From an uncultured Bacteroidales bacterium (GTDB lineage Bacteria > Bacteroidota > Bacteroidia > Bacteroidales > UBA10428), in the NCBI GenBank assembly GCA_963781805.1, contig CAWAHF010000004.1:2311688-2375687 (forward strand): DNA of 64,000 bases, written 5' to 3'. Shown in pieces: positions 15,065 through 30,713 of this stretch. Position 1 is the stretch's first letter, and every line of letters begins with the position of its first letter. Under the pieces are notes generated by a model. That model saw only the letters and a list, made by a program, of their open reading frames with translations. It made no database searches and was not told the DNA's origin. The position numbers were made by a program, and so were the translations under genes.

Positions 15065-15168
15065 AATTTTTTTTATAGATTCGGTTTAATTCTTAATATC
15101 ATCCATCCTTTTATCATTCCCGAGGTTTTAGGTTTTTGGTGATGAATTTTTGAAAAAATAGTTAAAAA

Positions 15169-15196: not shown

Positions 15197-15253
15197 TTAT
15201 ATTGAATTAACTTTATATGGAGTTCAGTTATTTAGAACATAAGGTTAAATAGA

Positions 15254-15739: not shown

Positions 15740-16615
15740 ATGTCTAAAAAACAACAACATATTAAAAATCAATCGGACAGAGGAAAGGAACCCATGAAAA
15801 TGATTCCTGATGCCACCATTCCCTGGGAAAAAAGTAAAGAGCAGGTATGGTCGGAACTGGAAAAAAGAATTGAATCTGTGGAAACTCCAGGCAAAATTGT
15901 TATTCTTAAACCATGGATGAAGTTAGCTGCTGCCGCGGTTATCACCCTTCTGATAGGAATTGCAACCCTAATGCAATTGTATACCCGAACCATAAGAATA
16001 CCTGCAGGTCAACATAGCAGCATATCCCTTCCCGATAATTCCCGTGTTAACTTAAATGCTCAATCAACTTTATCTTATAAACCATTGATGTGGATATTTT
16101 CACGAAAAACTAAACTTGAAGGGGAAGGCTATTTTGAAGTTCAAAAGGGAAAGAAGTTTGAGGTTTTATCCGATTTGGGCAAAACAATAGTTCTGGGCAC
16201 AAGTTTCAATATCTATTCCCGGAAGAATCAATACCAGGCCACCTGTATCACTGGCACCGTAAAGGTAACAGAAAAAGAGAATCATAAAGTAGTGGTTTTA
16301 AAACCGGGTCAGAAGGCCGAAATCAACGCTAAAGGTACTTTGCAGGTTTTATCTGATATTAATACTGAACAAACATTATCGTGGATGTCTGATCGCTTTA
16401 GTTTCACATCCGTGCCTGTAAGGCAGGTACTTGAAGAAATTGGCAGACAATACAATATTAAAATTACTATTTCAGGTAATATTGATAAAACATATACCGG
16501 TAACTTTAACAAAGTCAATTCAGCAGATGCCGCTTTGAATATTGTTTGTGGTCCCCTAAATTTAAACTTTGTCCGTAAGTCAGAAAATGAATATGTCATT
16601 TCCGGGAAAAATTAG
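15740..16615 (+). CDS. FecR-family anti-sigma factor / transmembrane sensor
   Basis: 291 aa with a single TM (LAAAAVITLLIGIATLM) and a FecR periplasmic domain (LEGEGYFEV...F.V). Its ATG directly abuts the sigma gene stop codon. Confidence 0.85.
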   Translation: MSKKQQHIKNQSDRGKEPMKMIPDATIPWEKSKEQVWSELEKRIESVETPGKIVILKPWMKLAAAAVITLLIGIATLMQLYTRTIRIPAGQHSSISLPDNSRVNLNAQSTLSYKPLMWIFSRKTKLEGEGYFEVQKGKKFEVLSDLGKTIVLGTSFNIYSRKNQYQATCITGTVKVTEKENHKVVVLKPGQKAEINAKGTLQVLSDINTEQTLSWMSDRFSFTSVPVRQVLEEIGRQYNIKITISGNIDKTYTGNFNKVNSADAALNIVCGPLNLNFVRKSENEYVISGKN

Positions 16616-19118
16616 TATTCTATATTTATATAAAATTATAATTATTCTGGCATTATCATGTCTGGGTTCTGTTTCTTTTTCACAGGAAGTCAAAATTAAA
16701 TGCACCAACGAACCACTGAATAAAATTCTGATAACACTCAGAGATAATTATAATATCATGCTATCTTTTGATGATAGCCAACTCGCTAATTACAGGCTGA
16801 CTGTCGATAAGACTTTTTCATCTGTTACGCATGCATTTAATTTTTTACTTAGAGGATTACCGCTGAGCTATGAGGTTTCGGGCGGAGTATATATCATTTA
16901 CCTGGTTGAGACAAAAGAAAAACCTAAGAAATACCTGATTGCCGGGAGAATATATGACAAAACCAATCTTGAAACACTTCCGTTTTCAAGTGTTATGATA
17001 AATAATACAGGATTAATTTCGGATGCCAAGGGCTATTTTTCATTAACTTCTTCCTACGATAGCATCTTCAATATTAAAATCTCATACCTTGGTTATTATA
17101 TTCTCGATACTACCCTTTCAGCAGGGACAAATTATTCATTTAAACTGATTCCTTCGGTTGTTGCCCTTGATGAAATAATCGTGGAAGGCTCTGCGATTGC
17201 AAGAACAATTAATACGGGTACACTGCCCGGTATATCCAGGTTAAATCATAAAGTTGCTTATTTTCTGCCTGGTAACGGTGATAATTCCATTTTTAACTTA
17301 TTAAGACTTCAGACCGGAGTGCTGGCTGCCGGGGAACAATCTTCCGATTTAATTATCTGGGGAAGCTACGAAGGCCAAAGCCAGGTAATTTTCGACGGAT
17401 TTACCCTGTATGGAATGAAGAACTTTAATGACAACATAAGCGCAGTAAATCCATTTATGGCTAAAGATATTAAGGTTTTGAAGGGCGGATACAGCGCTGA
17501 ATACGGAGAACGGGTTGGTGGCATTGTTGATATTAGCGGAATTGATGGAAATCGTTTATCTCCATCAGTACAATTTTGTATAAATAATATGACGTTGAGC
17601 GGAATGGCAAGCGTACCATTTAAGAAAAAATCATCACTTATACTTGCATACAGGCAAACCTATTATGAACTTTATGATCCGATTTCTTTTACCAGCTTTG
17701 GTTCGGGCTCTGGTTCAGGCAGGGGAGGGCAAAGCGGTGGTGCAGATTATTACGTCTCTCCGGAATATCAGTTTAGAGATATTAATCTTAAATATTCAGG
17801 AAGCGGTAAAAAGAGCAATTACTACATAAGCCTTTATGGCGGAAAAGATAAGTTCTTATACTCACTCAATGAGGAAAGTCCCGGGAAAACAATAACACTT
17901 GATCATGATGAAGGCAACTTCCAGTTTGGTGGATCCGCTTTTTATGGATTTACATGGAAAGAAAAGCATTCAACCAATGCTATTATAAGTTATTCAACAC
18001 TGCATACGGACAGAGAACATCTGGTAGAGACTGAAAATACTAAGGGACCAAGAGATTCTATAAGTATTTATGAAAATTATCACGCGGAGATCAATGAAGT
18101 AAATGCCCGGATTGATAATAATCTCAACCTTTCAGATTATCATCATGTTAATATAGGTTTGGGTATACTCTACTATTTTACATCGCTTGAAAGTACGTAT
18201 ACAGATTTGGAGTTAGGTAACAGCGCACCCATGCAGGTACCATATATCTATTTACAGGATAATATTACACTTTTTAAAAAACTAACGTTTAAACCTGGTT
18301 TGCGGGCCGATTATCTTACTTCCTCACAAAAAATATACATTCAGCCAAGGTTATCAGCAGTTTATAAATTTAATGAGAATTTAAAAATCAATTCTGCAGC
18401 AGGAACTTATAACCAGTTTACTGCCAAGAATATGATCCTGGACCCATCGGGAAATTACAGGTTCGTATGGGAACTTTGTGATGATGTAAGTATTCCCGTG
18501 TTGAATTCCATGCATTACACAGCCGGAATTTCGTTTACAAAAAATGATTTTACGGCAAGTATTGAAGGCTATTTGAAAAAAACGAAGGGCATCATTCGCT
18601 ATCTGCAAACAAGTGAAAGACTTTTCAAATATGAGGGTGATGCAAATACTAAAGGAGTGGATTTATTTGTCAAAAAGGATTTTAAAAATCAGACGTTCTG
18701 GATTTCGTACACACTAAGCAAAACGGAAGAACATTTTTCTTATTTCAGTTCGGATGAATACAAACCTGCCATGCAGGATCAACGGCATGAAATTAAATTT
18801 GCCGGACTGGCAAAATTCAAGTCTTTTCACCTATCGGCTAATTATGTATACGGTTCAGGGCTTCCTGACCCAAATTTATTACCGGATACTGTGAATTATG
18901 TCAAACGTTACAGCCGGCTGGATGCATCTGCAATCTATAAATTTTCTATTAAGAAACTACACCTGGATGCAGGCTTTTCTGTACTTAATGTTATGAATAC
19001 CGAAAATATAAAATATGCCAATTTTACCCGTATACCTACCGATGCAACCACTACTGTAAGCGTTTATGCAGAGGCAGTTCCAAGGACCTTTACACTGTTT
19101 TTGAATGTTTATTTTTAA
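16587..19118 (+). CDS. TonB-dependent receptor with an N-terminal STN signalling domain and a CarboxypepD_reg-like domain
   Basis: Domain order is STN-like, then IAGRIYDKTNLETLPFSSVMI (Cna-B/CarbopepD_reg), then plug, then barrel ending in NVYF. The ORF track starts at TTG 16569; ATG 16587 is more likely. No SusD-like gene follows. Confidence 0.85.
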   Translation: MNMSFPGKISILYLYKIIIILALSCLGSVSFSQEVKIKCTNEPLNKILITLRDNYNIMLSFDDSQLANYRLTVDKTFSSVTHAFNFLLRGLPLSYEVSGGVYIIYLVETKEKPKKYLIAGRIYDKTNLETLPFSSVMINNTGLISDAKGYFSLTSSYDSIFNIKISYLGYYILDTTLSAGTNYSFKLIPSVVALDEIIVEGSAIARTINTGTLPGISRLNHKVAYFLPGNGDNSIFNLLRLQTGVLAAGEQSSDLIIWGSYEGQSQVIFDGFTLYGMKNFNDNISAVNPFMAKDIKVLKGGYSAEYGERVGGIVDISGIDGNRLSPSVQFCINNMTLSGMASVPFKKKSSLILAYRQTYYELYDPISFTSFGSGSGSGRGGQSGGADYYVSPEYQFRDINLKYSGSGKKSNYYISLYGGKDKFLYSLNEESPGKTITLDHDEGNFQFGGSAFYGFTWKEKHSTNAIISYSTLHTDREHLVETENTKGPRDSISIYENYHAEINEVNARIDNNLNLSDYHHVNIGLGILYYFTSLESTYTDLELGNSAPMQVPYIYLQDNITLFKKLTFKPGLRADYLTSSQKIYIQPRLSAVYKFNENLKINSAAGTYNQFTAKNMILDPSGNYRFVWELCDDVSIPVLNSMHYTAGISFTKNDFTASIEGYLKKTKGIIRYLQTSERLFKYEGDANTKGVDLFVKKDFKNQTFWISYTLSKTEEHFSYFSSDEYKPAMQDQRHEIKFAGLAKFKSFHLSANYVYGSGLPDPNLLPDTVNYVKRYSRLDASAIYKFSIKKLHLDAGFSVLNVMNTENIKYANFTRIPTDATTTVSVYAEAVPRTFTLFLNVYF

Positions 19119-19425
19119 GCTTTTGTCAACTATCTTAATTCTCAGATAAAAATATTAAGAAAAATCCAATCATATAAATGTGCCTTCTTTTTTTATATGC
19201 AATATTATGTGAACTTTGTATAGGTATTTTATTTGAGCAATAAGTTTTAAAAGACAATTAGATATACTCAGAGCTTAAAATGTATAAAAACATATTTAAT
19301 TATCGATTAAATAGTATCAATCATAACATTTTAAAGAATAGAAGAACAATTGACTTAATGTTAACCATATGCTGAAATAATCTGATTGTTTTATTCGTAC
19401 CACTCTCCAGTTTAAATTTTAAAAC

Positions 19426-22400
19426 ATGGCAAAATCAAACAAATTTGGAGCATTCGGAGGTGTATTTACTCCTTCAATTCTCACCATTCTTGGTGTTATT
19501 ATGTACTTGCGTCTGCCAATGATTATAGGTGAAGCCGGATTGTATGCTACACTTGGGATAATTCTTGTAGCACATATTATATCTGTAACAACCGGATTGA
19601 GTGTTTCGTCAATTGCCACCGATAAAAAAGTACAGGCAGGCGGAACCTATTATATCATTTCAAGAAGCCTCGGATTACCCATAGGAGGTACGTTGGGCCT
19701 GGCTTTATTTGTAGGATTGTCGTTTAGTGTAAGCCTTTACCTGATAGGTTTCGCCGAAAGTTTTCTGAATTATTGGGGATTTGAGGTACCCCTGGACACC
19801 ATCAGGCTTGCCGGAAGCGCTATTCTGTTAATGGTCACGATTCTCACATTTATCAGCACTTCTTTGGCCTTGAAAACCCAGTATTTTATTATGGCCGCTA
19901 TTTTTCTTTCTTTGATTTCTATTTTTTTTGGGAAACATAATTTTGCACCATCAGGTGAAGTATTTTCAAGCGTCTCGTCTGCTCTTCCTTTAATGGTATT
20001 GTTTGGAATTTACTTCCCGGCTGTTACCGGGTTTGAAGCCGGAGTTTCCATGTCAGGCGATTTAAAAGATCCGAAAAGTTCCATTCCAAAAGGCACCATT
20101 TCAGCCATATTAATTGGACTGGTCGTCTATATAGGCTTAACATTTTTCTTATCAAAAACTGTCGATAGAAATGTCCTGGCAAACGATCCAAAGGTTTTGT
20201 TGAAAATAGCATGGATACCTCAACTTGTAATTGCAGGCATTTGGGGGGCAACTTTATCGTCGGCTCTTGGTAGTATTTTGGCTGCTCCGCGTATTTTACA
20301 GGCAACTGCCACTGATAAGATAACGCACAAATTTTTTTCAAAAGGTACAGGGGCAACTAATGAGCCACGAAACGCATTGTTGCTTACTTTCCTGATTGCC
20401 GAAGCTGGTATTCTGATTGGTGAACTTAATGTCATTGCCAGAATTGTATCTGTTTTCTTTATTACAACCTATGGATTTTTGAACCTGAGCTGTGCCATTG
20501 AAAGAATGACAAGCGCTGATTTCAGACCGGCTTTTAAAACTCCGGCATGGATAAGTCTGTTGGGTTCATTAGCCTGCATGATTGTTATGATACAGCTTGA
20601 TTTTATTGCCATGGTGGGAGCAACCCTTATCCTTGGCGCTGTTTATCTCTTTTTAAAGCGCAAAGAGCTCACCCTGCAAACAGGTGATGCATGGAGCAGC
20701 ATTTGGGCTTCGCTTGTTAAATCGGGGTTGAAGAAGCTTCGAACCCATACACTGCAATCGCGAAACTGGAGACCCAATATTATAATGTTTTCAGGTGAAG
20801 AGAAAATTCGCTCCTATATGATTGATCTGGGGAAAGATATTTCAGGCAGGCTGGGAATCCTTACAGGCTTCGAACTGGAAGAATCAGATGAAGAATTGTT
20901 GTTAAGAAAAAAGGATATTAAATTACCAGAATCAACCTCTTCAAGTTTTTTTATGAATCATTATACCTGCAAAGACATTTTTACAGGCATGGATGAGATA
21001 ATAAGAGTATATGGATTTAACGGAATAGATCCGAATACAATTCTTATGGGTTGGAGTACCAAAAAAAATAACAAACAGGCATTTATTCAACTTATTAAAA
21101 AACTTGAAAAGAACAACTTCAATTCAGTCTTTTTACATTATAATCCTGATAAAGGATTTGGAAATATGAAGACCATCGATGTATGGTGGAGTGGTTGGGG
21201 ACAAAATCTCACCTTTGCAATTAATTTAATCCGCCACCTTACGATGTCAGGTAACTGGAAGGATTCGGTGGTAAGACTGTTTATTGTCACTCATGATGTT
21301 ACCATCCTCGAAATAATCTACAAATCGGTGAGTAATATTCTTGAACAGTATAGGGTCGACATGGAAATCAAAGTTATAAATAACAGTATAAATAAATTTC
21401 AAAAAAATGATATTATTCAGAAGGAATCGGCCAATACTGACCTCACAATTATAGGTATTCCGGATAAAAAATACCAGGATATAGATAAAACCTATACAGA
21501 TGTTTGCGATCTTGTTTCAAACCTGGGTACAACACTGCTTATTAATGCTTCCAATACATTTGAAGAGTACGATTTGCTGCACGATGAAAAGACCACGCAA
21601 AAAAGTACTCCCTTAGAAGAAAATGAGTTGTCCTTGCCAACCCTCAAGTCTTCTGCATTCCTTCTCATCAATGAAGAAGTTCAGAAAATTGATCATACTG
21701 GCATTGAGATCTATAAATCATTCTATGAAAAAGCCATTGCTCCATTTTTCAGGGAAAATCTCGATGTAATTAATGAAGTGCAAAAACTTTATAATTTATC
21801 ATTCGCTGGTTTTAAAAAATTAGCCAAACTAAAAGACTCTTACCATAAACAAAAACAGTTATTCAATATTAGGAATGATATCCATTTTAAAACCAAAAAT
21901 CTTCTGGAAAACCTGGTGACAGAAAAACTTAAAATTCAGCAAGATTTGTTTACTTCAGGCATAGAATGGTATGTGAGTATGCTTGAGGATGAAATTGCCC
22001 GGTATCCCAAAAAATTGATTATTCCTTTTAACAAAGAAGATTTTAAAATTCAAAAATCAGATTCATTTGGTTTAAAATGGTTTAAAGTTAGAAAAAAGGT
22101 CATGCATCCTTTTTCAAAGACCACCATTAAAGAAAAAATCAGATATCGGGAAATTATACATTATTATTTCAGGGATAACAGGTTTCAATATGTTGACTCT
22201 TTTCTCAAGGATTTCAATCAAAGTAGTCTATTATTTATATCAGGAATTAAGGAGCTTCTCTTATCTATTGAAAATCAAATGGATTTGCTGTCCAAAAACA
22301 TATCTGATGAAGTTGATGAAAAGGACGCGGTTCATGAAATACTCAATATACTCCTGGAAAAAACGAATGAACTAAAGCAGGATATCGAAATAAATTCAAC

Positions 22401-24528
22401 ATTGTATCTTAATAGACTTCTGTCTGACTTTCGCAAGAATGAGCAACTTTTTAGTAACGACCTGGAAAAAATTAACTGTAACAGGTTGATATTAAGAAAA
22501 CGTAGAAAAAGTAAATATTACCGTTCGCTAAAGCTCAATTTATTTGATTTTTCAAAAGTCTGGTTTGAAAATACCTTTCATTATTCCAATAAGATATATC
22601 TCGATTTAGTTGTCTTATCCCTAAAAAACAGAATGACGGATGAAGCAACTGAATTTATTCTAAGATTAAAACAACAGGTTAATTCAGAACTTCTTAATAA
22701 AATCGGACAATTTTTATCAGAGATAAAAAAAATTCATGCAAAACCTGATGATTTCCACAAAATCAATCCTGAATTAAACATTGACAGCAGTTTTTTCAAA
22801 TTCGATGAGGATTTTCAAATTTTATCCGATGCAATAGATGAAATGACTGATGAATTGCCTGAAAACATTGATGTATCTGAAATACTCAATAATTCAAAAA
22901 AAATACAAAATGAAATTAGAACTACCATCGAAGTTCCTGTAAGACAAATGACTAAACATTTTATCAATTCAATTTTCCTTGGAGATGTTGAAGAATATCT
23001 TAAAAATTTGAATGAAACAATAAGGAAGATTGTATTTAAGACAAAAGACAACGTAAGTTACATGTATTTTGAACTTGAAAACCTTGAAGACGATACAGAG
23101 GATATAAAAAAGGAGATACAAAGGATACTGGATGAAACGAAGCAGGAAATTATCCCGGTAGAAAACAATGTGATTAATATGCATGATAAGATTGAAAATG
23201 ATATAATAAATTCTCTTAATAATGCCTTCGAACCACTGTCTTTTATTAAAATTTTAGATAGTAGTCGTGAACTTTCTCATTTCATTATGGAATATAAAGG
23301 TAAAAAAACACTCAACAGGGTTGAGTCATGGATAGATTCTATGAAGATTTCCTTGAGAAATAAAACCGTAAGACTTTTATATTCCAGAAGCGAAGGTGTT
23401 TTGTTTGCCAGGAAAATTACTGAACAGGAAGATCAGCATTCAATATCCGAGCAGATACTGGATTTTGTTACCAATTTAAGTCCGGATTCAACCATATATA
23501 ATCAGATACCGGTATACTATAAAAACCTGTTTAGCGGTCGATCAAGCATTAGCGAAGATTTTTGGATTGAACGGGCAGCAGAGGAAGAACAGTTTGATAA
23601 AGCTTATAATCACTATCTATCTGGCTATAAGGGAGGAATTATGGTACTGGGTGAAAGAAATTCAGGTAAAACTGCTTTTTGCAGACATATCACAAAGAAA
23701 TATCTCAATAGTAAAAAAGTATATCATATTTTCCCACCAATTTACGGATCTGTTAATCCTATAGATTTTGTTAAAATATTAAATGAAGTAACCGGTTTTG
23801 GCGGTAATGCATTGGAAGTTTTTGACAGACTATCAAATGATGTTGTAATGGTCATTCACGACCTTGAATTGTGGTGGGAGATGTCTGAGGCTGGTCTTGA
23901 AACCGTTCAATTGATACTGGACATCATAAAAAAATACAGTACAAAGTGTCTTTTTATTATCAATATGAACCAGTTTACTTATAAAAGAATCAATACAGTG
24001 TTTGCACTTGAAGATAATTTTGTTGGTATAATTTTTTGCAGACCTTTTGACTCTGAAGATTTGAAAGATCTCATCATGCGCAGACATAAATCAAGCGGGA
24101 TGAAAATCCATCTGGGTAAAATAACCGAAGAGCAATTATCAGAAATTCGAATGGCCGGACTTTTTAATAAATATTTTAATTTTTCCGGTGGTAATCCGGG
24201 ATTATCCTTATTTACATGGGTAGCACAAATTAAAAAAATATCCAATGAAAATTTTTATATCGAACCTCCGGAAGTGCCTAATATGAATATTTTTGAGAAT
24301 CTGAATGAAGACTGGAAGGTTGTTCTCACGCAACTTATCTATCATAAGAGAATGGATATAAACAAGCTGAAGAATGTTTTACAAATCGATGAAGCCGAAA
24401 TTGAAAAAATTATCACCTCATTATTAATGACAGGACTTATTAAGGAGAAGTCAAAAGGATTGTATACAATTAACAGATATGTGGACAGATTTCTTACAGA
24501 ATACTTTCATGAACATGAACTTATTTAA
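19426..24528 (+). CDS. Fusion protein: APC-superfamily cation-chloride-cotransporter-like permease, ~650-aa helical region, then P-loop NTPase with winged-helix tail
   Basis: Uninterrupted 1700-aa ORF. Residues 1 to ~455 carry 12 TM helices with SLC12-like motifs. An SLC12-type cytoplasmic domain begins at NWRPNIIMFSG. Walker A GERNSGKT is at 23650-23673 (aa 1409-1416). Walker B-like VVMVIHDLE has its Asp at 23860. The C-terminal wHTH-like stretch reads LQIDEAEIEKIITSLLMTGLIKE. Confidence 0.8.
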   Translation: MAKSNKFGAFGGVFTPSILTILGVIMYLRLPMIIGEAGLYATLGIILVAHIISVTTGLSVSSIATDKKVQAGGTYYIISRSLGLPIGGTLGLALFVGLSFSVSLYLIGFAESFLNYWGFEVPLDTIRLAGSAILLMVTILTFISTSLALKTQYFIMAAIFLSLISIFFGKHNFAPSGEVFSSVSSALPLMVLFGIYFPAVTGFEAGVSMSGDLKDPKSSIPKGTISAILIGLVVYIGLTFFLSKTVDRNVLANDPKVLLKIAWIPQLVIAGIWGATLSSALGSILAAPRILQATATDKITHKFFSKGTGATNEPRNALLLTFLIAEAGILIGELNVIARIVSVFFITTYGFLNLSCAIERMTSADFRPAFKTPAWISLLGSLACMIVMIQLDFIAMVGATLILGAVYLFLKRKELTLQTGDAWSSIWASLVKSGLKKLRTHTLQSRNWRPNIIMFSGEEKIRSYMIDLGKDISGRLGILTGFELEESDEELLLRKKDIKLPESTSSSFFMNHYTCKDIFTGMDEIIRVYGFNGIDPNTILMGWSTKKNNKQAFIQLIKKLEKNNFNSVFLHYNPDKGFGNMKTIDVWWSGWGQNLTFAINLIRHLTMSGNWKDSVVRLFIVTHDVTILEIIYKSVSNILEQYRVDMEIKVINNSINKFQKNDIIQKESANTDLTIIGIPDKKYQDIDKTYTDVCDLVSNLGTTLLINASNTFEEYDLLHDEKTTQKSTPLEENELSLPTLKSSAFLLINEEVQKIDHTGIEIYKSFYEKAIAPFFRENLDVINEVQKLYNLSFAGFKKLAKLKDSYHKQKQLFNIRNDIHFKTKNLLENLVTEKLKIQQDLFTSGIEWYVSMLEDEIARYPKKLIIPFNKEDFKIQKSDSFGLKWFKVRKKVMHPFSKTTIKEKIRYREIIHYYFRDNRFQYVDSFLKDFNQSSLLFISGIKELLLSIENQMDLLSKNISDEVDEKDAVHEILNILLEKTNELKQDIEINSTLYLNRLLSDFRKNEQLFSNDLEKINCNRLILRKRRKSKYYRSLKLNLFDFSKVWFENTFHYSNKIYLDLVVLSLKNRMTDEATEFILRLKQQVNSELLNKIGQFLSEIKKIHAKPDDFHKINPELNIDSSFFKFDEDFQILSDAIDEMTDELPENIDVSEILNNSKKIQNEIRTTIEVPVRQMTKHFINSIFLGDVEEYLKNLNETIRKIVFKTKDNVSYMYFELENLEDDTEDIKKEIQRILDETKQEIIPVENNVINMHDKIENDIINSLNNAFEPLSFIKILDSSRELSHFIMEYKGKKTLNRVESWIDSMKISLRNKTVRLLYSRSEGVLFARKITEQEDQHSISEQILDFVTNLSPDSTIYNQIPVYYKNLFSGRSSISEDFWIERAAEEEQFDKAYNHYLSGYKGGIMVLGERNSGKTAFCRHITKKYLNSKKVYHIFPPIYGSVNPIDFVKILNEVTGFGGNALEVFDRLSNDVVMVIHDLELWWEMSEAGLETVQLILDIIKKYSTKCLFIINMNQFTYKRINTVFALEDNFVGIIFCRPFDSEDLKDLIMRRHKSSGMKIHLGKITEEQLSEIRMAGLFNKYFNFSGGNPGLSLFTWVAQIKKISNENFYIEPPEVPNMNIFENLNEDWKVVLTQLIYHKRMDINKLKNVLQIDEAEIEKIITSLLMTGLIKEKSKGLYTINRYVDRFLTEYFHEHELI

Positions 24529-24540
24529 TTTTCTTAAGCA

Positions 24541-25236
24541 ATGAAAATAATATTTGTATTATTCATTATCTTATTGACGTTTATTGGAATGAGAATTATA
24601 CAGCTTATTGCAAGGCAATTAATAAAAAAATATGCTGTACTGAGAAAACTTTTAAACCTTATACCTCTGGTTGGATTGATAATATGGCTCATTATTCTGT
24701 TTTGGGCAGTAAATTATTTATTTCAGGATAAATCTTATTACCTGGTGATAATCGTAAGCATTATTGTAATCCTAAGCCTGACTATCGGTTGGTTTTTACT
24801 GAAAGATATTATTGCTGGAATTATTTTCAGAATTCAAAACAATTATTCGCAGGGTGAGTTTGTGCAGTTTGGAAAATTATCCGGCCGCTTGAACGAAATG
24901 CATTTAACGCATATTTCTATTCATACCAAAGACGGTAAAAGCATAAAAATTCCTTACTCAAGACTAAGCAATGAAATAATTTCTCTGAGATTAGAAACAA
25001 AATCATTTGAGAGTGACAGGTTTATAATAAATGTCAACAAAAAGTATCCTAAGAAAGAAACAGAAGATATTATTTTTGCTCTACTTAACAACTCTCCCTG
25101 GCGAGTTGGCAATGCTGTGCCTCAGGTAAAGTTTTTAAATGAGGATACAGATGGTTTTTCATTTGAAATACTGGTTCAGGTAAGAAATCAAAAACATCTT
25201 AACAACATTAAAGAAAGCCTGATAAAAAGATTCTAG
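24541..25236 (+). CDS. Small MscS-family mechanosensitive channel-like protein
   Basis: 231 aa with 3 TM helices, then KDIIAGIIFRIQNNYSQGEFVQFGKLSGRLNEMHLTHISIHTKDGKSIKIPYSRL (MscS beta-domain pattern). Starts 12 nt after the fusion gene stop. Confidence 0.7.
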   Translation: MKIIFVLFIILLTFIGMRIIQLIARQLIKKYAVLRKLLNLIPLVGLIIWLIILFWAVNYLFQDKSYYLVIIVSIIVILSLTIGWFLLKDIIAGIIFRIQNNYSQGEFVQFGKLSGRLNEMHLTHISIHTKDGKSIKIPYSRLSNEIISLRLETKSFESDRFIINVNKKYPKKETEDIIFALLNNSPWRVGNAVPQVKFLNEDTDGFSFEILVQVRNQKHLNNIKESLIKRF

Positions 25237-25384
25237 TGTCATGTCAATCGTATTATGTCATATAGTCACCCTGAACTTGATTCAGGGTCTTTGGAAGATT
25301 AAAAAGATTAGCTTCGCTGAGCCTTTTAGGGTTCCGAATCAAGTTCGGAATGACTTTACCACTTTATAATACTTGACATGACAC
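25237..25384. repeat. MITE-like 148-bp element with perfect 12-bp terminal inverted repeats
   Basis: TIRs gtgtcatgtcaa (25237-25248) and ttgacatgacac (25373-25384). Internal hairpins accctgaa/ttcagggt (25268-25288) and ttccgaa/ttcggaa (25332-25350). Begins immediately after the MscS-like stop codon. Confidence 0.6.
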
Positions 25385-26000
25385 TTGTAGTTTTTGCTTA
25401 CCTAAATGAAATTTAAAGTTTAAGTCCTCATCCTCCTTCTTGGTTTAAGTATACTCAACACTTGTCGGTGGTTCATGATTCACTTCGTTAAACCGTAACT
25501 TATACCAATAAATTAATTCAGGTCTGCGACCATTTTGATTCAAAATGAAGTTATAAACTTCATCTTAAAAAAAGGCTTAGGTCGCATGCTTAAAGCCAGA
25601 AAGGTATATATAGAAATTGTTCCCGGAATATTTACATTGTTTAACATGCGTATTTTTAATATCAGTCTATAGCTCCTACAGAGTTATATTGAATTTAACA
25701 TTTTATTCTACTATACTTTTGCCCCTTCGGAATACAGAAATAACCCAGGTTTTTCTTTCCCGAGAATTTGATATCGGGTGTTCAAAATTTGTGGATGAAA
25801 TCTTTTCCTCTATGAATCTCCGTCCAGAACTCAATGGCTCTCTGTGTTATAATTTTTTTAATTTCTATTTCCCACAGATTTACACTAAATCTTTCGATTG
25901 GTTTTACTGATAACATCCTTTATAGTTTGACATTAGTTTTTTTGCAGTAATTCTTCTCCAAACCGCAATCCTTTAATATCAGAAAAAAAACTTAACTAAA

Positions 26001-26028
26001 AGTAGGGTAAATAAAATCTCATGCGGTT
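26001..26028 (+). promoter_or_regulatory. Second copy of the ECF-type promoter motif
   Basis: AAAAGTAGGGTAAA-N12-CGGTT. The first 14 nt are identical to 15166-15179, and TCAT-N-CGGTT is also shared. Lies ~80 nt upstream of ATG 26109. Confidence 0.45.
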
Positions 26029-26108
26029 ATAAGATAAACAATAAGCAAAAAAGGTATTCTTCAATACAAAATATGCTTAAAATAAATGTCAAATTAAAAC
26101 TTATAAAA

Positions 26109-26750
26109 ATGAAAAAATTAGCAGCAAAAATTATCGGTAGTGCAGTTGCCTTCTTCCTGATAACAGGATTTGCATTTGCACAGGGATCTGAAAATGGTAC
26201 ACATTTGCAGACTCAGGACAAGGACCAGGTTAAAGATCAAATTCAACTAAAAGATCAAACTGCAGATCAGGACAAGGATCAGACCAGAGATCAGACTCAG
26301 TTAAAAGATCAGACCGGAACAAAGGATCAGGATCAGACCAGAGATCAAACTCAACTGAAGGATCAAACTGCAACCCAGGATCAGGTAAAAGAACAAACCC
26401 AGGCTGGTGAACAAACCGGCGAACAGGTTCAGAACCAGGCCAAGGAACAAGCTCAGGCAGGTGACCAAAATGCTTTGATGGAACAAAACAGGCTAAGGTT
26501 CAAAGAATCTCTGTCAGAAGAACAAAAACAACTTCTTGAAAACAAGGAAATGACAAGAAATCAGCGGAGAAATGCATTTATGGAATCACTTAGTGAACAG
26601 CAGAAAGAAATGCTGATGGAACAAAAACAGATACGCACTCAACAGAAAAACGAAGTTCGCCAGAGTGTTTCTGAAGAACAACGCCGCCAGTTAAAACAAA
26701 ATAAAGAAAATACCCAAACCAGAACTGGTAAACAGGGTGGAGGAAAATAA
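26109..26750 (+). CDS. Secreted Q/D/K-rich repeat protein with three LSxxQ/VSxxQ motifs (possibly Spy/CpxP-like)
   Basis: Signal peptide MKKLAAKIIGSAVAFFLITGFAFAQ. Tandem DQTRDQTQLKDQT(G/A)T repeats. C-terminal SLSEEQKQLL, SLSEQQKEML, SVSEEQRRQL. The ORF track start at 26073 is less likely. Confidence 0.6.
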   Translation: MKKLAAKIIGSAVAFFLITGFAFAQGSENGTHLQTQDKDQVKDQIQLKDQTADQDKDQTRDQTQLKDQTGTKDQDQTRDQTQLKDQTATQDQVKEQTQAGEQTGEQVQNQAKEQAQAGDQNALMEQNRLRFKESLSEEQKQLLENKEMTRNQRRNAFMESLSEQQKEMLMEQKQIRTQQKNEVRQSVSEEQRRQLKQNKENTQTRTGKQGGGK

Positions 26751-26783
26751 TTAAGTGCAATTCTTAACTGATGAAGTCAGGTT

Positions 26784-26806
26784 CGGAATACCGGCAGGTA
26801 TTTCCG
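26784..26806 (+). terminator. Intra-operon hairpin (possible partial terminator)
   Basis: cggaatacc / ggtatttccg stem with loop ggca, followed by a T-rich run. Confidence 0.4.
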
Positions 26807-26859
26807 GTCCTGCTTCTTTTAAAAAATAAATTCATTAGTTGTTGTTAAAATCAGGAAAA

Positions 26860-27732
26860 ATGAAAAGGGTTATTTTAATATTTCTGTCGGTAGCATGCTG
26901 GTTACCTTTATGGTCTCAGGCAGACAGGCTCGATTCGTTGCTTGAAGATGTATTGAGCAATGAAACGGAAATTTCAAGATTTTTAATTCCGACACCCAAA
27001 TTTCAGTTTTTGTATGCAGGAACCAATTTTGATAACAAAACCTTTTATGCCGGTCGTGAAATTGGTGATCAGGTGCATAATATGAGTGCTCAGGTGTTTT
27101 ACCTGAATTCCAACGGACTTTTTATGGGAGTATCCGGCTCATGGTATAGTCAACTGGAACCCAGTTATAAGAATACGGTATTATCTGCAGGTTACGGCAA
27201 AACCTTTAACAAGGTAAAAAGCCTTTCAGCAAGAGTATCCTATAGCCGGTATCTATATTATAAACCCGATCCGGAGTACGATTATGCCTACAACAATAAC
27301 CTGGGAACAGGACTCACTTTCAGAAAAAAATGGTTTGGAGCAAGGATGAATTTCAATTTCCTTTTTGGGCAGGATGTTGGTATGAATATGTCTGCCAACC
27401 TGTTTTCAAAGATTAAACTCATCAAGCTGAATAAATTTGATAATATCCAGATAGAGCCTGAGATATTATTTTTTGTTGCCTCTGAAGCCACGGAAACAGA
27501 TAACACAAGTTATATCAGCGGCAGATCATCAGATTCGTCATTAGGTACTATCAGTAATACCTATGGTATTTTAAATACACAATTCTATCTCCCTCTCTCC
27601 ATTTCATTTGGAAATTTCGATCTCGAACTGGGATATTCTGTTAATATTCCATCTACAAGGGAACAGAATATAAGTTATCCGGTAAGTTCCTTCTTCTCAG
27701 TTTCACTTGGATATATGATATCTTTAAAATAG
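26860..27732 (+). CDS. Hypothetical secreted / outer-membrane beta-barrel-like protein
   Basis: Signal peptide MKRVILIFLSVACWLPLWSQA, then alternating aromatic/polar beta-strand pattern. No recognised motif. Confidence 0.5.
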   Translation: MKRVILIFLSVACWLPLWSQADRLDSLLEDVLSNETEISRFLIPTPKFQFLYAGTNFDNKTFYAGREIGDQVHNMSAQVFYLNSNGLFMGVSGSWYSQLEPSYKNTVLSAGYGKTFNKVKSLSARVSYSRYLYYKPDPEYDYAYNNNLGTGLTFRKKWFGARMNFNFLFGQDVGMNMSANLFSKIKLIKLNKFDNIQIEPEILFFVASEATETDNTSYISGRSSDSSLGTISNTYGILNTQFYLPLSISFGNFDLELGYSVNIPSTREQNISYPVSSFFSVSLGYMISLK

Positions 27733-27872
27733 CCACTTTCATAAACTGAAAATCAAGTTTTTTAAAACATAATTGCGAATTCTGAATATACAGAATCCGC
27801 AATAGTGTTGTACAATTTAAATCGTCAATGAAGGCACTTCAAACCAAAGAAAGAATACTCCTCGTTTGTATT

Positions 27873-28079
27873 TTATTCTTTTTTCTTCCCTGTGTTGATA
27901 CCGAATGGCAAATAGATAGGACAAAAGCTTATTATACTGGTTAATATAAAAATACCTGCTATAACAAGCAGTACAATTGCCAATACACCTGATATTACAT
28001 GTGTAAAGAACAGAACCAGAATTAGAGCAGCAATCAGTATTCTGACTACCTTGTCAATAGAACCCATGTTTTTTTTCAT
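27873..28079 (-). CDS. DUF2892 (YgaP C-terminal-like) small membrane protein
   Basis: 68 aa: MGSIDKVVRILIAALIL...FCPIY, with two TM helices. Confidence 0.7.
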   Translation of the reverse strand: MKKNMGSIDKVVRILIAALILVLFFTHVISGVLAIVLLVIAGIFILTSIISFCPIYLPFGINTGKKKE

Positions 28080-28125
28080 ATTAGTATTTTTTCTGTTAAA
28101 TTAGTAAAAATTAAAATGTTATGTA

Positions 28126-28422
28126 TTATAATCCTGCTATAATCTTCATAATTTGAGGCTTGGTGTGAACCCCCGCCTGCTTGTATTTTATTTCACCATT
28201 CTTAAAAACCATTAGTGTTGGAACTCCCTGTATACTGAATCTGTTAGCAATTTCTGGATTTTGATCTACATCAATTTTAATGATTCTGACCTTCTTACCC
28301 ATTTCAGAAGCAATCTCCTTTAATATGGGAGACTGAACCTTGCAGGGTGCACACCAAAGAGCATGAAAATCAATCAACACCGGAAGGGAATCATTAATAA
28401 TATCTTTAAAATTGCCTTTCAT
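28126..28422 (-). CDS. Thioredoxin
   Basis: 98 aa with the active site WCAPCK. Confidence 0.9.
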   Translation of the reverse strand: MKGNFKDIINDSLPVLIDFHALWCAPCKVQSPILKEIASEMGKKVRIIKIDVDQNPEIANRFSIQGVPTLMVFKNGEIKYKQAGVHTKPQIMKIIAGL

Positions 28423-28430
28423 CCCTTATT

Positions 28431-28718
28431 TTAAATTTCTTCGGTTTCTACTATCTTGGCAAGAACATCGGCATAAGGAAGTATCAGGTACTTTTTACCT
28501 TCAAATTCCACCTCAGTACCGCTAAAAGCTTTAAACAATACCATATCTCCAGGTATGATTTCCGCATTTTCAATCACGCCCATCCATACCAATCTGGCAA
28601 ATTTGGGTTTTTCTTTAGCGCTTTCAGGTATAATAATACCTGAAGGCGTTTTTTGTTCAATTTCCGATTCTGTAATATCAAGAACAACGTTCTGATTTAC
28701 TGGTAATAACTCTTTCAT
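28431..28718 (-). CDS. GroES/Cpn10-like co-chaperonin, with no adjacent groEL
   Basis: 95 aa. Aligns by eye with E. coli GroES: GIIIPESAKEKPKFARLVWMG vs [21 protein letters not shown], and PGDMVLF...YLILPYADVLAKIV vs VGDIVIF...VLIMSESDILAIV. Confidence 0.7.
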   Translation of the reverse strand: MKELLPVNQNVVLDITESEIEQKTPSGIIIPESAKEKPKFARLVWMGVIENAEIIPGDMVLFKAFSGTEVEFEGKKYLILPYADVLAKIVETEEI

Positions 28719-28747
28719 AATTTACTATTTTTTTGAATTATATTTTC

Positions 28748-29326
28748 TTATTGAATTTCAAGTAATTCTTTCAATCGTGGCTGGTTAAAACCCACAACGA
28801 CTTCACCGTTTATTTCAGTCTGTGGTACTCCCTGCTGACCGGTTCTGCGAACAAGTTCCTGAGCAGCTTTTTCATCACGTGACACATCAATATCTGAATA
28901 GGGAATTCCGTTTTTCCGTAACCACGATTTAAGTGTGTTGCACCAACTGCATGTTGGAGTTGAATAAACAGTAACCCTTTTGGGAGCTTTTCCTTCAGCT
29001 TTCATCTTTGCCTGGTATACCGCGCTTTCAAAAAGCGCTTTATAATAAGAACTTCCATGGCAACCCTGAATAACATTCTTATAGATTCCATTTTCAAAAA
29101 TCAGCAACGAAGGAGTACTGGTAATTCCATACTGTGGATGAATATCCCTGACTGAACTTATATCGGCAGTGAAAACCGGCAACGATGTTTCGCTCTGTTC
29201 AGCCAATTCAAGACTTTTCAATGCACATTGACTGAGTTCACTATCAGGTTTATATAATAATAAAAACGATTTTTCTGTTTTTGCAGATTTCTGAATAAAA
29301 TCAGCTTGTGAAATCACTTTTTCCAT
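28748..29326 (-). CDS. Two-domain redox protein: thioredoxin-fold N-domain with no CxxC (one Cys near the usual active-site position), plus glutaredoxin-like C-domain (CSWC)
   Basis: 192 aa. The C-terminal VTVYSTPTCSWCNTLKSWLRKNGIPYSDIDV...GVPQTEINGEVVVGF is NrdH/YruB glutaredoxin-like. Confidence 0.7.
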   Translation of the reverse strand: MEKVISQADFIQKSAKTEKSFLLLYKPDSELSQCALKSLELAEQSETSLPVFTADISSVRDIHPQYGITSTPSLLIFENGIYKNVIQGCHGSSYYKALFESAVYQAKMKAEGKAPKRVTVYSTPTCSWCNTLKSWLRKNGIPYSDIDVSRDEKAAQELVRRTGQQGVPQTEINGEVVVGFNQPRLKELLEIQ

Positions 29327-29332
29327 AATTTG

Positions 29333-29752
29333 TTAGTTGACTTTTTTAATTGCTTGTAAAAGAAATTCTTTGTTTTTTACTCCGACATAACGATTTACTT
29401 CAACACCATTCTTAAAAAGAATCATGGTTGGAATTCCTCTGATTTTGAACTTTTGTGCAAGCTCCTGATATTGTTCAACGTTAACTTTTCCAACGTGTGA
29501 ATTGCCATTTAACTCCGCGGCTATTTCGTTCAGCACCGGAGCCATAATCCGGCAGGGCGCACACCATGCTGCCCAGAAATCAACCAGAAGGACTTTGTTT
29601 TTTGTTTGATTATTAAAATTTTTATCCGTAAGGGTCACAATTTTTTCATGATCACTAACCATTGGTATGTTCTTCATTTTCAATCTTGCCAGAAAAATCA
29701 GAATTCCAATCCCAAGGATAACCGAACCTAGAATAATGAATATTGTATGCAT
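29333..29752 (-). CDS. Membrane-anchored thioredoxin
   Basis: 139 aa with an N-terminal TM helix, then a thioredoxin domain with WCAPCR. Confidence 0.85.
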   Translation of the reverse strand: MHTIFIILGSVILGIGILIFLARLKMKNIPMVSDHEKIVTLTDKNFNNQTKNKVLLVDFWAAWCAPCRIMAPVLNEIAAELNGNSHVGKVNVEQYQELAQKFKIRGIPTMILFKNGVEVNRYVGVKNKEFLLQAIKKVN

Positions 29753-29753
29753 A

Positions 29754-30713
29754 CTATATTGTAATTAAGTTCTTTTGTTTTGATTTAATTTCGTGCAGGT
29801 AATTTGATACGGCAAGTGCGGCCACTGTTCCATCGCCTACTGCTGTGGTTACCTGTCTGAAACGTTTGGCTATGCTGTCGCCAGCGGCATAAATACCTTC
29901 AATATTCGTCGACATATCAGGTTTTACTACAATCTCGCCCCATTTATTTAACTCAACCGCATGTTGCAGGAATTCCGTATTGGGAATGTATCCGATAAAA
30001 ATAAATGTTCCATCGGTTTTTAAATTGTAACTTTCACCCGTGTTCAGATTTTTAATATCAACACTTTCCAGGCTTTCAGTTCCATGAAATTTAGTAATTA
30101 CCGACTCCATAATAAACCTGATTTTCGGATTGGATTCCGCCTCTTCCACAGCATGTTCAAATGCTTGAAAATAGCTGAACTGGTGTATTACTGTAACTTT
30201 TAAAGCATATTTGGTAAGCGATACAGCTTCTTCAAGCGCTGAATTACCGCCTCCCACCACTACTATTTCTTTATCTGTAAAAAAATCTCCGTCGCACGTG
30301 GCACAGTATGAAATTCCTTTTCCTTTAAACAGATCTTCACCGGGAACTCCCAATGTACGTGACCTGCCTCCGGGACTGAGTATTATACTGTCAGCAGTAT
30401 AGGTGATACCATCGGAAAGGATTATGTTCTTTATTTCACCGGACAAATTGATGTTTTTGACGGAAACATTTGATTTTATTTCACAACCAAATGTCTTCGC
30501 CTGTTTTTTCATGATGCTGGCCAATTGATATCCGCTGATATTCTCAACTCCCGGATAGTTGGCTATTTCATGAGTCAGTATCATTTGTCCGCCCACAATA
30601 CCTTCATCCACAATCAATGTTTTCAACCTTGCACGTGACAGGTATATACCAGCGGTCAGACCGGCAGGACCTGAACCAATAACAATGGCATCGTAATGAG
30701 TTAATGAATTCAC
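29754..30713 (-). CDS. trxB: Thioredoxin-disulfide reductase
   Basis: 319 aa. FAD site GSGPAG, redox disulfide CATCDG, NAD(P)H site GGGNSALEEA. Confidence 0.9.
   Translation of the reverse strand: MNSLTHYDAIVIGSGPAGLTAGIYLSRARLKTLIVDEGIVGGQMILTHEIANYPGVENISGYQLASIMKKQAKTFGCEIKSNVSVKNINLSGEIKNIILSDGITYTADSIILSPGGRSRTLGVPGEDLFKGKGISYCATCDGDFFTDKEIVVVGGGNSALEEAVSLTKYALKVTVIHQFSYFQAFEHAVEEAESNPKIRFIMESVITKFHGTESLESVDIKNLNTGESYNLKTDGTFIFIGYIPNTEFLQHAVELNKWGEIVVKPDMSTNIEGIYAAGDSIAKRFRQVTTAVGDGTVAALAVSNYLHEIKSKQKNLITI

Follow-up and report, generated by a model that had tools for sequence, protein, structure and literature searches.

A two-block promoter-like motif shared by the probable halves of an insertion-split ECF sigma factor/FecR module in an uncultured Bacteroidales bacterium

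ECF sigma factors, of which a Bacteroidota genome encodes 22.5 on average, usually autoregulate, and those of the FecI-like clade (ECF239-243) pair with FecR (PMC7826278). A canonical sigma factor/FecR/TonB-linked model exists for the Bacteroidetes (PMC13472631); ECF240, the main FecI-like group of this phylum, has according to the re-classification of these proteins zero members studied experimentally (PMC7826278). Here we describe a FecI-like locus in a 64-kb stretch of DNA (the window) from an uncultured Bacteroidales bacterium, in which a motif occurs in two copies. With a probability of roughly 0.8, a module conserved in Bacteroidota has here been split by an insertion, and the copies are its two promoters, one kept by each half.

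The initial annotation had reported that a motif at 15169-15196 is repeated at 26001-26028. This holds in the whole window, in which the 34-nt pattern AAAAGTAGGGTAAA-N7-TCAT-N-CGGTT-N-TA has exactly two exact matches, both on the + strand, at 15166-15199 (P1) and 25998-26031 (P2), so that the reported coordinates were correct within 3 nt, and no match was present in any of 100 dinucleotide-preserving shuffles (0 expected versus 2 observed). The significance is in the two-block pattern and not in the bare 10-mer GTAGGGTAAA, which with up to one mismatch occurs 4 times in the window versus 4.0 expected and is not significant alone. In P1 the 10-mer forms a -35-like block (15170-15179) and CGGTT a -10-like block (15192-15196); in P2 these blocks are located at 26002-26011 and 26024-26028. 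Both copies are on the coding strand 84-107 nt ahead of a start codon, the start of P1 being 84 nt from that of the sigma factor gene, and the predicted transcription start for P2 (~26035-26038) would give a leader of ~73 nt; for P1 a start at ~15203-15206 is predicted. A weak partial site at 11852-11866, already dismissed as a promoter in the initial annotation, was rightly set aside, as CGG is missing at the proper spacing and the ATG is 16 nt away. Scanning the surroundings of the downstream gene pair for the σ70 consensus gave fewer promoter-like sites (7) than in shuffles (10.5), and an Rfam search of 14900-28200 produced zero matches, so there is no known leader RNA in this interval.

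The gene behind P1 (15254-15739, + strand, TTG start) encodes an ECF (group IV) sigma factor of 161 aa, which has the regions 2 and 4 only and the size of about 160-200 aa typical of these proteins (Pfam Sigma70_r2, 2.6e-6; Sigma70_r4_2, 4e-14; Sigma70_ECF, 1e-6; region 3 not significant). It scores 70.9 bits against TIGR02937 (cutoff 42.9) and 114.5 bits against the NCBIfam model TIGR02985 Sig70_bacteroi1, just under the cutoff of 126.4. FecI models are matched at 5e-21 and 3e-19, yet far under their cutoffs, and the score against the FecI equivalog NF041727 is 76.4 bits versus a cutoff of 260; by these profile scores the protein is classed as FecI-like and not as a FecI orthologue. Abutting this gene is that of a 291-aa FecR-type single-pass anti-sigma factor (15740-16615, + strand) with the Pfam domains FecR (PF04773, 2e-14) and FecR_C (PF16344, 7e-9), the end of which is overlapped by the gene of an 843-aa TonB-dependent transducer, or TBDT (16587-19118, + strand; alternative TTG start at 16569). 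The transducer carries CarbopepD_reg_2 and Plug (6.6e-9) domains and has the layout of a TonB-dependent receptor with an N-terminal STN-like extension, the FecR_C/STN-like match of residues 46-110 being marginal (24.4 bits, exactly at the cutoff) and conserved in position. No SusD gene follows it, and a search of PDB sequences returned zero relatives at E<=1e-3. The combination of a FecI-like sigma factor, FecR and a TonB-dependent transducer points to an input of the cell-surface-signalling type, and not to a misfolding sensor of the σE/Cpx type.

In JGI and MAG relatives the order sigma factor, FecR, TBDT, small secreted protein and 290-aa protein is unbroken, and in 25 of the 30 loci from GTDB species representatives that have at least 3.5 kb of upstream sequence the five genes are contiguous; these five are the only broadly conserved genes in the neighbourhood. 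The window differs by a 6.9-kb stretch (19127-25982) that is missing from relatives: homology to the related locus L002 breaks off at 19126 and is regained at 25983, with GH43, MutS2 and SNF genes in syntenic positions on the flanks. This insert lies between the transducer stop codon and P2, ends 19 nt before P2 and leaves the halves 10.8 kb apart. It contains a gene for an SLC12/amino-acid-permease fusion protein of 1700 aa (19426-24528) and an MscS-like gene (24541-25236), both assigned by Pfam, and ~750 nt without a convincing gene, and a repeat search over its 6.9 kb detected neither terminal repeats nor a mobile-element signature. As judged from this comparison of loci, the two sites are the putative promoters of two transcription units of a single five-gene module, split here by the insertion. 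The gene of the small protein and that of the 290-aa protein, or its homologue, are adjacent in every assessable locus, and also beside an unrelated ECF sigma factor in locus L172, and so behave as a unit. In sister modules DUF2202 or His-rich lipoproteins replace the pair, with no barrel there. In the literature searched DUF2202 is mentioned in a single paper, on ferrosomes.

The motif follows the module in relatives. Scanning 665,754 bp of related loci on both strands for GTAGGGTAAA (up to 2 mismatches), N12 and CGG gave 28 sites upstream of the sigma factor gene, 44 upstream of the small gene (24 and 38, respectively, when redundancy is removed) and a single site elsewhere, which precedes a DUF2202 gene. 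The sites of orthologous sigma factor genes lie 53-124 nt upstream, and positions on which no selection was made are conserved as well, i.e., the A-A-G preceding the motif, its T-rich spacer, the TT behind CGG and T-R-A-A ~8 nt downstream. In an unbiased metagenome sample scanned with a 16.5-base pattern, homologues of the module or its cargo adjoin 77 of 121 sites; at all 77 the motif reads in the direction of the gene that follows it, none being in the wrong orientation, and P2-type motifs sit directly after the TBDT gene. The other ~44, which lack a recognisable module gene in their vicinity, may be due to chance, to short contigs or to targets as yet unknown. Synteny, this footprint at both positions and the strict orientation strongly support the idea of a shared regulon, and the prediction that the motif is the promoter of the ECF sigma factor at 15254, with the two genes downstream of P2 belonging with that sigma factor, is supported at the sequence level. 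The motif could instead be an operator of another regulator or a remnant of local duplication, with which the lack of significance of the bare 10-mer by itself would agree; this is extremely unlikely, as there are two blocks with fixed spacing, placed on the coding strand at the above distances from start codons, in the correct orientation at every module-linked metagenome site, ahead of the sigma factor gene itself and kept across families while the flanks diverge. Moreover, around P2 the similarity between the window and L002, which resumes 19 nt upstream, is limited to the motif plus leader, and P1 and P2 have only the two blocks in common. Sigma factors just 43-78% identical to that of the window have the same motif, which makes the sigma factor acting at P2 ambiguous if the genome has paralogous modules. 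Within the window the module and its cargo have no further paralogue.

The first gene behind P2 (26109-26750, + strand) encodes a secreted protein of 213 aa, in which the signal peptide MKKLAAKIIGSAVAFFLITGFAFA|Q is followed by Q/D/K/T-rich repeats, a helical core and a Gly-rich basic tail; Gln makes up 22.8% of the mature part. An upstream ATG at 26073 was rejected as its start, since it is not conserved and reading from it in L002 hits a stop. The motifs LSEEQ, LSEQQ and VSEEQ, noticed in the initial annotation together with the signal peptide, are all present in the core (orthologues mostly have LTEEQ), whereas its description of near-identical 54-bp repeats was too strong: the array encoding DQTRDQTQLKDQT units is real (26206-26385, + strand; TRF period 54, about 3 copies, 76% matches), and its best two DNA copies are identical at 44 of 54 positions (81%). 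Repeat number differs among near-identical relatives (191 aa versus 215 aa). In size, secretion, helical content (AF2, five helices, pLDDT 79.5) and motifs the protein fits the LTXXQ family, although the window protein itself matches nothing in Pfam or NCBIfam, including LTXXQ PF07813. That model is matched by 10 of 20 orthologue cores (best 2.5e-4) and 16 of 27 short-form relatives (best 9.7e-9), and single relatives match the NCBIfam models of Spy (1e-4) and CpxP (1e-3). One source labels a relative 'Spy/CpxP family'. Comparison with Spy/CpxP along the lines proposed in the initial annotation was negative for solved structures: PDB sequence and profile searches with the core and the short-form relatives retrieved no Spy, CpxP or ZraP, Foldseek with the core model found nothing significant (Spy at E ~6, probability 0.04), and hhalign against an approximate sequence of E. 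coli Spy gave a probability of 21%. In these searches no similarity to the fold or profile of solved members was detected, and the suggested Spy/CpxP likeness would be limited to membership of the LTXXQ motif family, reached only transitively.

These results bear on whether the module is a small envelope-stress regulon under the sigma factor at 15254, as had been suggested. Of this suggestion the shared regulon is strongly supported and the envelope-stress side only in part, FecR and the transducer being the architecture of ligand-driven surface signalling. In a classical envelope-stress regulon the sigma factor would sense damage, the small protein would be a Spy-like ATP-independent chaperone refolding periplasmic or outer membrane proteins, and the barrel encoded next to it a client or a stress porin. 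The LTxxQ motifs and the above matches of relatives are in line with this, as are locus L172, in which the LTxxQ/barrel pair adjoins an unrelated, non-FecR ECF sigma factor and an RND pump, and loci L174 and L176, which have an adjoining ECF/zf-HC2/PF13801 set; among the genes that Prevotella intermedia induces most on solid medium are an LTXXQ gene with its neighbour and one for an ECF sigma factor, possibly not homologues of the module (PMC2633007). We nevertheless consider it unlikely, because besides the type of regulator the failure of PDB profile and fold searches to detect Spy/CpxP similarity, and the substrate-specific appearance of the DUF2202 or His-rich lipoproteins of sister modules, stand against it.

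The LTxxQ gene is followed by a hairpin, as initially described: a 44-nt stem-loop (26773-26816) with a subsequent UUUU (feature 26773-26820, + strand), the best 56-nt sub-window of which folds at -23.5 kcal/mol, the folding z-score of the 115-nt intergenic stretch being -3.6. A scan for consensus terminators around the pair missed this long imperfect hairpin. In all 37 distinct intergenic regions examined, a hairpin of unrelated sequence occupies this position, with energies from -13.6 to -31 kcal/mol and a single one not below -17; a role as a partial terminator or in stabilising the RNA is likely. Beyond it lies the gene of the 290-aa protein (26860-27732, + strand), which was initially seen as a second secreted, beta-rich protein of unknown family and for which the structure prediction then proposed has borne this out. 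A signal peptide, MKRVILIFLSVACWLPLWS|Q, is followed by a conserved Q-x-DRLDSLL and by ~12 strands, modelled by AF2 (pLDDT 76, pTM 0.70) as a closed antiparallel barrel with an even number of strands, as expected of an outer-membrane beta-barrel. The family, with at least 500 cluster representatives, is undescribed: the barrel has no match in Pfam and NCBIfam, nor have its distant relatives in Pfam, and a PDB profile search with the family gave only E>0.6, with no sequence similarity. The C-terminal aromatic residue of the beta-signal is missing (...GYMISLK in the window, ...GYLLPLN in the consensus). This and the lack of an LTXXQ HMM match for the window protein were counted against the preferred explanation.

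Foldseek returned 90 PDB outer membrane proteins at E<=1e-3 for the barrel, all generic 12-14-strand barrels with a TM of ~0.45. Because the top matches are to FapF (E 9e-6), a conserved helix is present at the N-terminus of the barrel and the genes are always paired, one may imagine dedicated export, in which the 12-stranded barrel moves its secreted, repeat-rich and low-complexity Q-rich partner, presumed disordered, to the surface as FapF does with Fap amyloid subunits; the Gly/Asn-rich C-terminal tail common to LTxxQ and DUF2202 cargo could then be a tag. The match is generic, since OmpG, KdgM, PcoB and autotransporter barrels are equally good, sequence identity with FapF is 10% and fap genes are absent. 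Moreover, the repeats carry many charges (D/K/Q/T), unlike amyloid, and what is conserved in the small protein is its helical LTxxQ core, of a kind usual in the periplasm. This LTxxQ module is elsewhere fused to the periplasmic end of FecR, and the modules with DUF2202 and His-rich cargo have no barrel. We regard export as highly unlikely.

Returning to the two-promoter module, a mechanism can be proposed in which P1 would drive the operon of the ECF sigma factor, the FecR anti-sigma factor and the TonB-dependent transducer, and P2 that of the secreted LTxxQ-repeat protein, the hairpin and the 12-stranded outer membrane barrel. The transducer would sense a signal at the outer membrane and relay it to FecR, which would set the sigma factor free; the latter would read GTAGGG(TAAA)-N-CGGTT, with 16 nt from GTAGGG to CGG, and thereby amplify its own operon and turn on the envelope pair, the hairpin raising the amount of the small protein above that of the barrel. 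Most likely the LTxxQ protein is periplasmic and acts with the periplasmic domain of FecR and/or the barrel as a CpxP-like feedback factor or adaptor, a role that we favour over that of a general chaperone. The cargo of sister modules under the same promoter hints at a metal as the signal.

A role close to FecR is also suggested by a variant of the module. In five TBDT-less loci (L043, L046 and L174-L176) the place of FecR_C is taken by an LTxxQ core, preceded by a Q-rich linker and followed by a GN tail. The LTxxQ profile is matched by 25 distinct fusion proteins, with E of 1e-12 to 1e-23. P1 and P2 are retained at up to 2 mismatches in four of the five loci, the P2 of L043 being a 3-mismatch copy only. 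The domain fusion by itself suggests that the LTxxQ part may exert CpxP-like feedback. A further proposal, which we put forward tentatively and hold to be improbable, is that the LTxxQ protein and the 290-aa barrel constitute a hitherto unrecognised sensing device that reaches from the periplasm to the outer membrane and serves FecR-type anti-sigma factors: where the TBDT is lacking, the FecR-fused LTxxQ part would dock the barrel, with the invariant N-terminal DRLDSLL helix as a candidate contact, and the barrel would replace the transducer as input, whereas in TBDT-containing modules the free LTxxQ protein would be a CpxP-like feedback adaptor, the Gly/Asn-rich tail serving as recognition tag.

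The analysis provides a precise predicted promoter, which could become an orthogonal part in Bacteroidota genetics, defines a putative minimal regulon for one widespread clade and brings to light an outer-membrane barrel family lacking any family model. In addition, the natural fusion suggests that an LTxxQ (CpxP-like) module and FecR work together directly; if this is true, feedback of the CpxP type would not be limited to two-component systems and would include ECF/anti-sigma factor signalling.

Among described systems, FecI/FecR/FecA (E. coli fec, Pseudomonas CSS, ECF239-243) resemble the module in that a sigma factor, a FecR anti-sigma factor and a receptor with a signalling extension are encoded together, and in that a sigma-specific two-block promoter precedes the target genes. 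They differ in that the module's sigma factor gene is seemingly autoregulated, its score against the FecI equivalog is well below the cutoff, its putative targets are a periplasmic LTxxQ protein and a small outer membrane barrel instead of uptake genes, and the window has no nearby iron-transport genes. The PUL-linked sigma/anti-sigma/SusC systems of Bacteroides (originally ECF10, now ECF240) share with it the phylum, a FecR-type anti-sigma factor, a transducer and the NCBIfam Bacteroidetes sigma subfamily that is the best match of the module's sigma factor, but the module has neither a SusD partner nor glycan-degrading cargo under its promoter; by description only, it is closer to ECF239, which has no carbohydrate-binding neighbourhood (PMC7826278). 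Small 12-14-stranded outer-membrane barrels (FapF, the COG4313 channel, OmpG, KdgM/NanC and PcoB) are similar to the 290-aa family in predicted topology and size, and FapF and COG4313 also in the helix N-terminal to the barrel, yet structural agreement with them is low, sequence similarity is lacking, and the AGRE(I/L)G and DRLDSLL motifs are confined to the new family. Finally, CpxP, Spy and ZraP (PF07813; clan partner PF13801 Metal_resist) are, like the LTxxQ protein, small, secreted and all-helical with repeated L-T/S-x-x-Q motifs, and are main targets of an envelope signalling pathway. E. coli CpxP and Spy have two motifs, whereas the LTxxQ protein of the module has four, as well as a long Q/D/E/K low-complexity N-terminal region, a Gly/Asn-rich tail and a constant barrel partner, and its window member is without a significant HMM, PDB-profile or fold match to them. 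The fusion of LTxxQ to FecR, the sensor, has a parallel in the action of CpxP on CpxA and another in the anti-sigma factors of ECF241 that contain PF13801.

The window contains exactly two copies of the two-block motif AAAAGTAGGGTAAA-N7-TCAT-N-CGGTT-N-TA, both on the + strand. One copy (P1, 15166-15199) lies 84 nt 5' of the TTG-started gene of an ECF σ factor (15254-15739), and the other (P2, 25998-26031) lies 107 nt 5' of the start at 26109 of a gene for a small secreted protein. This repetition over 10.8 kb, which the initial annotation had pointed out, was matched by none of 100 dinucleotide-preserving shuffles, while the bare 10-mer of the motif alone has no significance in the window. A weak partial site at 11852, already dismissed in that annotation, was rejected since it lacks the CGG block and lies only 16 nt from an ATG; the gene 3' of it (11882-12538) encodes an OMP_b-brl_2 outer-membrane protein.

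When the window and the loci of relatives (genomes or metagenome contigs, numbered with an L) were scanned on both strands (665,754 bp) for GTAGGGTAAA with up to two mismatches, N12 and CGG, 28 sites were found 5' of σ genes at a distance of 53-124 nt, 44 sites 5' of the small gene, and only one elsewhere (L007 4105, before a DUF2202 gene). In the 62 non-redundant sites, positions that had not been selected for are conserved too: the motif is preceded by A-A-G, its spacer is T-rich, CGG is followed by TT, and T-R-A-A, a plausible start region, lies about 8 nt downstream. The gap from GTAGGG to CGG is 16 nt, a block spacing usual for ECF promoters of the σW and σE types. For an unbiased test, the metagenomes of the entire collection were scanned with the pattern RGTAGGGTAAA-N7-T-N4-CGGTT; at least 120 contigs matched, with 121 sites among the matches listed. 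Homologues of the module described below, or of its cargo (the genes directly behind the motif), adjoin 77 of these 121 sites, and none of these 77 has the motif in the opposite orientation. The motif is thus conserved, position-specific and oriented rather than randomly scattered in intergenic DNA, and the sequence comparisons strongly support the proposal of a shared ECF promoter that would define a small regulon, formed here by a single module split by an insertion.

The σ factor consists of regions 2 and 4 only, and its top matches are a Bacteroidetes σ subfamily and FecI models, all under the curated cutoffs. Its gene is abutted by that of a FecR/FecR_C anti-σ factor (15740-16615), which overlaps the gene of a TonB-dependent receptor (TBDT; 16587-19118) with an N-terminal FecR_C/STN-like extension, CarboxypepD_reg and Plug domains. 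Such an architecture belongs to cell-surface signalling and not to a σE/RseA-type stress sensor. When homologues of the 290-aa product of 26860-27732, encoded behind the small gene, were traced back to their own contigs for gene order (83 clusters, none matched in Pfam), the genes for σ, FecR, TBDT, a 185-215-aa protein and the 290-aa protein were all contiguous. Scanning one genome per GTDB species produced 44 loci, from Bacteroidales MAGs, Prolixibacteraceae (Sunxiuqinia, Mangrovibacterium, Gaoshiqia), Saccharicrinis and a Flammeovirgaceae MAG. In 25 of the 30 loci that extend 3.5 kb or more upstream, the TBDT gene ends directly 5' of the small gene and its partner; in two, the σ-FecR pair lacks a TBDT, and in three, the downstream pair is uncoupled from σ-FecR-TBDT, as in the window. 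Clustering of all ORFs identified these five genes as the only broadly conserved ones in the neighbourhood.

In L002, which shares 61-75% amino-acid identity with the window and syntenic GH43, MutS2 and SNF flanks, nucleotide homology to the window stops at 19126, the 3' end of the TBDT gene, and restarts at 25983, 19 nt 5' of the motif. A 6.9-kb insertion, in which no terminal repeats were found, thus accounts for the distance between the two sites, and the two loci are better regarded as one conserved module. The insert holds an SLC12/permease fusion gene and a MscS-like gene (24541-25236). The 1700-aa fusion protein (19426-24528) begins with an amino-acid-permease/SLC12-like transporter domain (PF00324, 1e-46); the roughly 1000 aa behind it match no family except, weakly, DUF4423 and contain a P-loop-like GERNSGKT motif. 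Directly 3' of the 290-aa gene, on the - strand, lies a redox/chaperone cluster (27873-30713) encoding a YgaP-like TM protein, a thioredoxin, a 95-aa stand-alone Cpn10/GroES-like protein, a glutaredoxin-like protein, a second thioredoxin and a thioredoxin reductase; as it is missing at the syntenic position of L002, it represents a second rearrangement beside the module.

The product of the small gene (26109-26750) has, as annotated, a signal peptide, a Gln-rich mature part (22.8%) and the motifs LSEEQ, LSEQQ and VSEEQ. The 54-bp repeats exist as a period-54 tandem array but are not near-identical, the best copies agreeing at 44 of 54 positions. Its orthologues have a signal peptide cleaved at A-x-A|Q and a repeat region, rich in Q/D/E/K, whose length and sequence differ strongly between them. 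They also share a core of about 95 conserved aa (..FRASLTEEQxAILENxEMTRxEKRxAFxASLSEEQxxML..), in which L-T/S-x-x-Q occurs three or four times, and end in a basic tail rich in Gly and Asn. Neither Pfam nor NCBIfam has a match for the window protein, but its relatives do reach PF07813 (LTXXQ): 10 of 20 orthologue cores match it, at best with 2.5e-4, and so do 16 of the 27 short-form relatives that the core profile had retrieved, at best with 9.7e-9. The NCBIfam models for Spy and CpxP are touched by single relatives, and one relative carries Spy/CpxP as its source name. The protein thus plausibly belongs to the LTXXQ motif family, though only transitively through relatives. The suggested Spy-like fold found no such support: PDB profile searches and Foldseek recovered none of Spy, CpxP and ZraP for the core or its relatives, and hhalign gave 21% probability against Spy. 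AF2 predicts five helices (pLDDT 79.5).

The repeat array evolves fast: the near-identical relatives L002/L003 (5321-5896, 191 aa) and L004 (4709-5356, 215 aa) are one 24-aa repeat unit apart, and across the family the low-complexity region varies between next to nothing, in a protein of 145 aa overall, and about 170 aa. Basic Gly/Asn-rich tails (for example GNGKGGN and GKGYRGGR) end the LTxxQ proteins (window 26721-26747; L019-L047) and also the unrelated DUF2202 cargo of the same motif (L081, L092, L127, L170 and L006 6891-7775). The σ factors, the lipoB family and the esterases lack such tails, which may function as a tag or mediate an interaction.

The 290-aa partner is, as proposed, a second secreted, β-rich protein. 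It has a signal peptide, and AF2 with 49 homologues predicts an N-terminal helix and a barrel of about 12 strands (pLDDT 76, pTM 0.70). The Foldseek matches of this model (FapF, a COG4313 channel, OmpG, KdgM/NanC, PcoB and autotransporter barrels; TM about 0.45, about 10% identity) are generic. D25-S26 within the DRLDSLL helix and an AGRE(I/L)G motif are the most conserved features. The family comprises at least 500 representatives of 50%-identity clusters, 298 of them with E≤1e-10 among the matches listed, and no Pfam model matches even its distant members. The LTxxQ and barrel genes also stand together in L172, beside an unrelated ECF σ factor and without the motif, and therefore form a cassette. 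The annotated hairpin between them was confirmed (26773-26820, strong, with UUUU), and each of the 37 distinct intergenic regions examined has a stable hairpin of unrelated sequence, which suggests controlled stoichiometry of the two products.

Sister modules, with σ factors 43-78% identical, stand behind the same putative promoter among the metagenome matches listed. The motif precedes a σ gene at 10 sites and a lipoprotein of one of two families (276-302 aa, no Pfam match for either) at 20, the latter followed by σ-FecR-TBDT wherever the contig is long enough. Behind a TBDT gene, it precedes an LTxxQ gene (then the barrel where the contig extends) at 19 sites plus five without the upstream part, DUF2202 at seven plus three, and a 116-aa His-rich lipoprotein at four. 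The two larger lipoprotein families (L053, L070, L095, L113, L121, L125, L136, L166) bear the motif GYPKTITLDYGDSTVL and paired Cys motifs (DFG.ENC.C.DG...DYGDGECD), respectively; the 116-aa protein (L069, L116, L129, L149) is probably metal-binding, judging by its His-rich tail (..HDGTHHNGTDHGTHDKDGHSHGSHDGKHH). In L171, a 6.7-Mb genome, three copies of a variant motif (GGTAGGGG..-CGGT) at 947, 5003 and 5930 stand before σ, DUF2202 and LTxxQ genes; behind this cluster lie a DUF4405 gene and two genes for S41 tail-specific proteases. On five short marine contigs (L057, L076, L103, L119, L168), the gene behind the motif encodes an esterase sorted by the T9SS (PHB-depolymerase-like, with Por_Secre_tail). 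Matches in or beside a glycosyltransferase-like ORF (..KYLLFLNPDT..; L061, L064 at 3422, L084, L099, L109), 1.2 kb 5' of the lipoprotein-σ module, may be either distal sites or coincidences within conserved coding sequence.

The earlier view of an envelope-stress regulon with a Spy-like chaperone is only partly supported. The module belongs to the FecI/FecR type of signalling system, and its conserved output consists of an LTxxQ protein together with a new outer-membrane barrel. A metal-related inducing signal is possible, though less likely than not; hints in this direction are the DUF2202-family and His-rich lipoproteins among the sister cargo, FeoAB downstream in L005, DUF4405 near the module in L171 and an adjacent ECF/zf-HC2/PF13801 set in L174 and L176. 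DUF2202 has been called ferritin-like, and both DUF2202 and DUF4405 have been linked to ferrosome clusters (10.1101/2020.01.10.902569). A lead to a candidate counterpart comes from Prevotella intermedia 17, in which growth on solid medium raised an LTXXQ "CpxP-like" gene 28.6-fold, its neighbour 16.9-fold and, along with the genes flanking it, an ECF σ gene 9.2-fold (PMC2633007).

Five loci without a TBDT (L043, L046, L174-L176) encode a FecR protein of 405-452 aa that matches PF04773 only and in which FecR_C, the part expected to contact the transducer, is missing. Behind a Q-rich linker it has instead an LTxxQ core, and it closes with a GN tail like that of the LTxxQ and DUF2202 cargo. The LTxxQ profile matches 25 distinct fusion proteins of this kind (E 1e-12 to 1e-23). 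The five loci retain a separate LTxxQ gene and the barrel, and four keep both P1 and P2 at no more than two mismatches, L043 having only a 3-mismatch copy at P2. The exchange of FecR_C for an LTxxQ module argues that LTxxQ may act physically with the anti-σ factor, the barrel or both. Such an arrangement would be analogous to CpxP, which acts on CpxA. It would also resemble those ECF241 anti-σ factors that carry PF13801 (PMC7826278).
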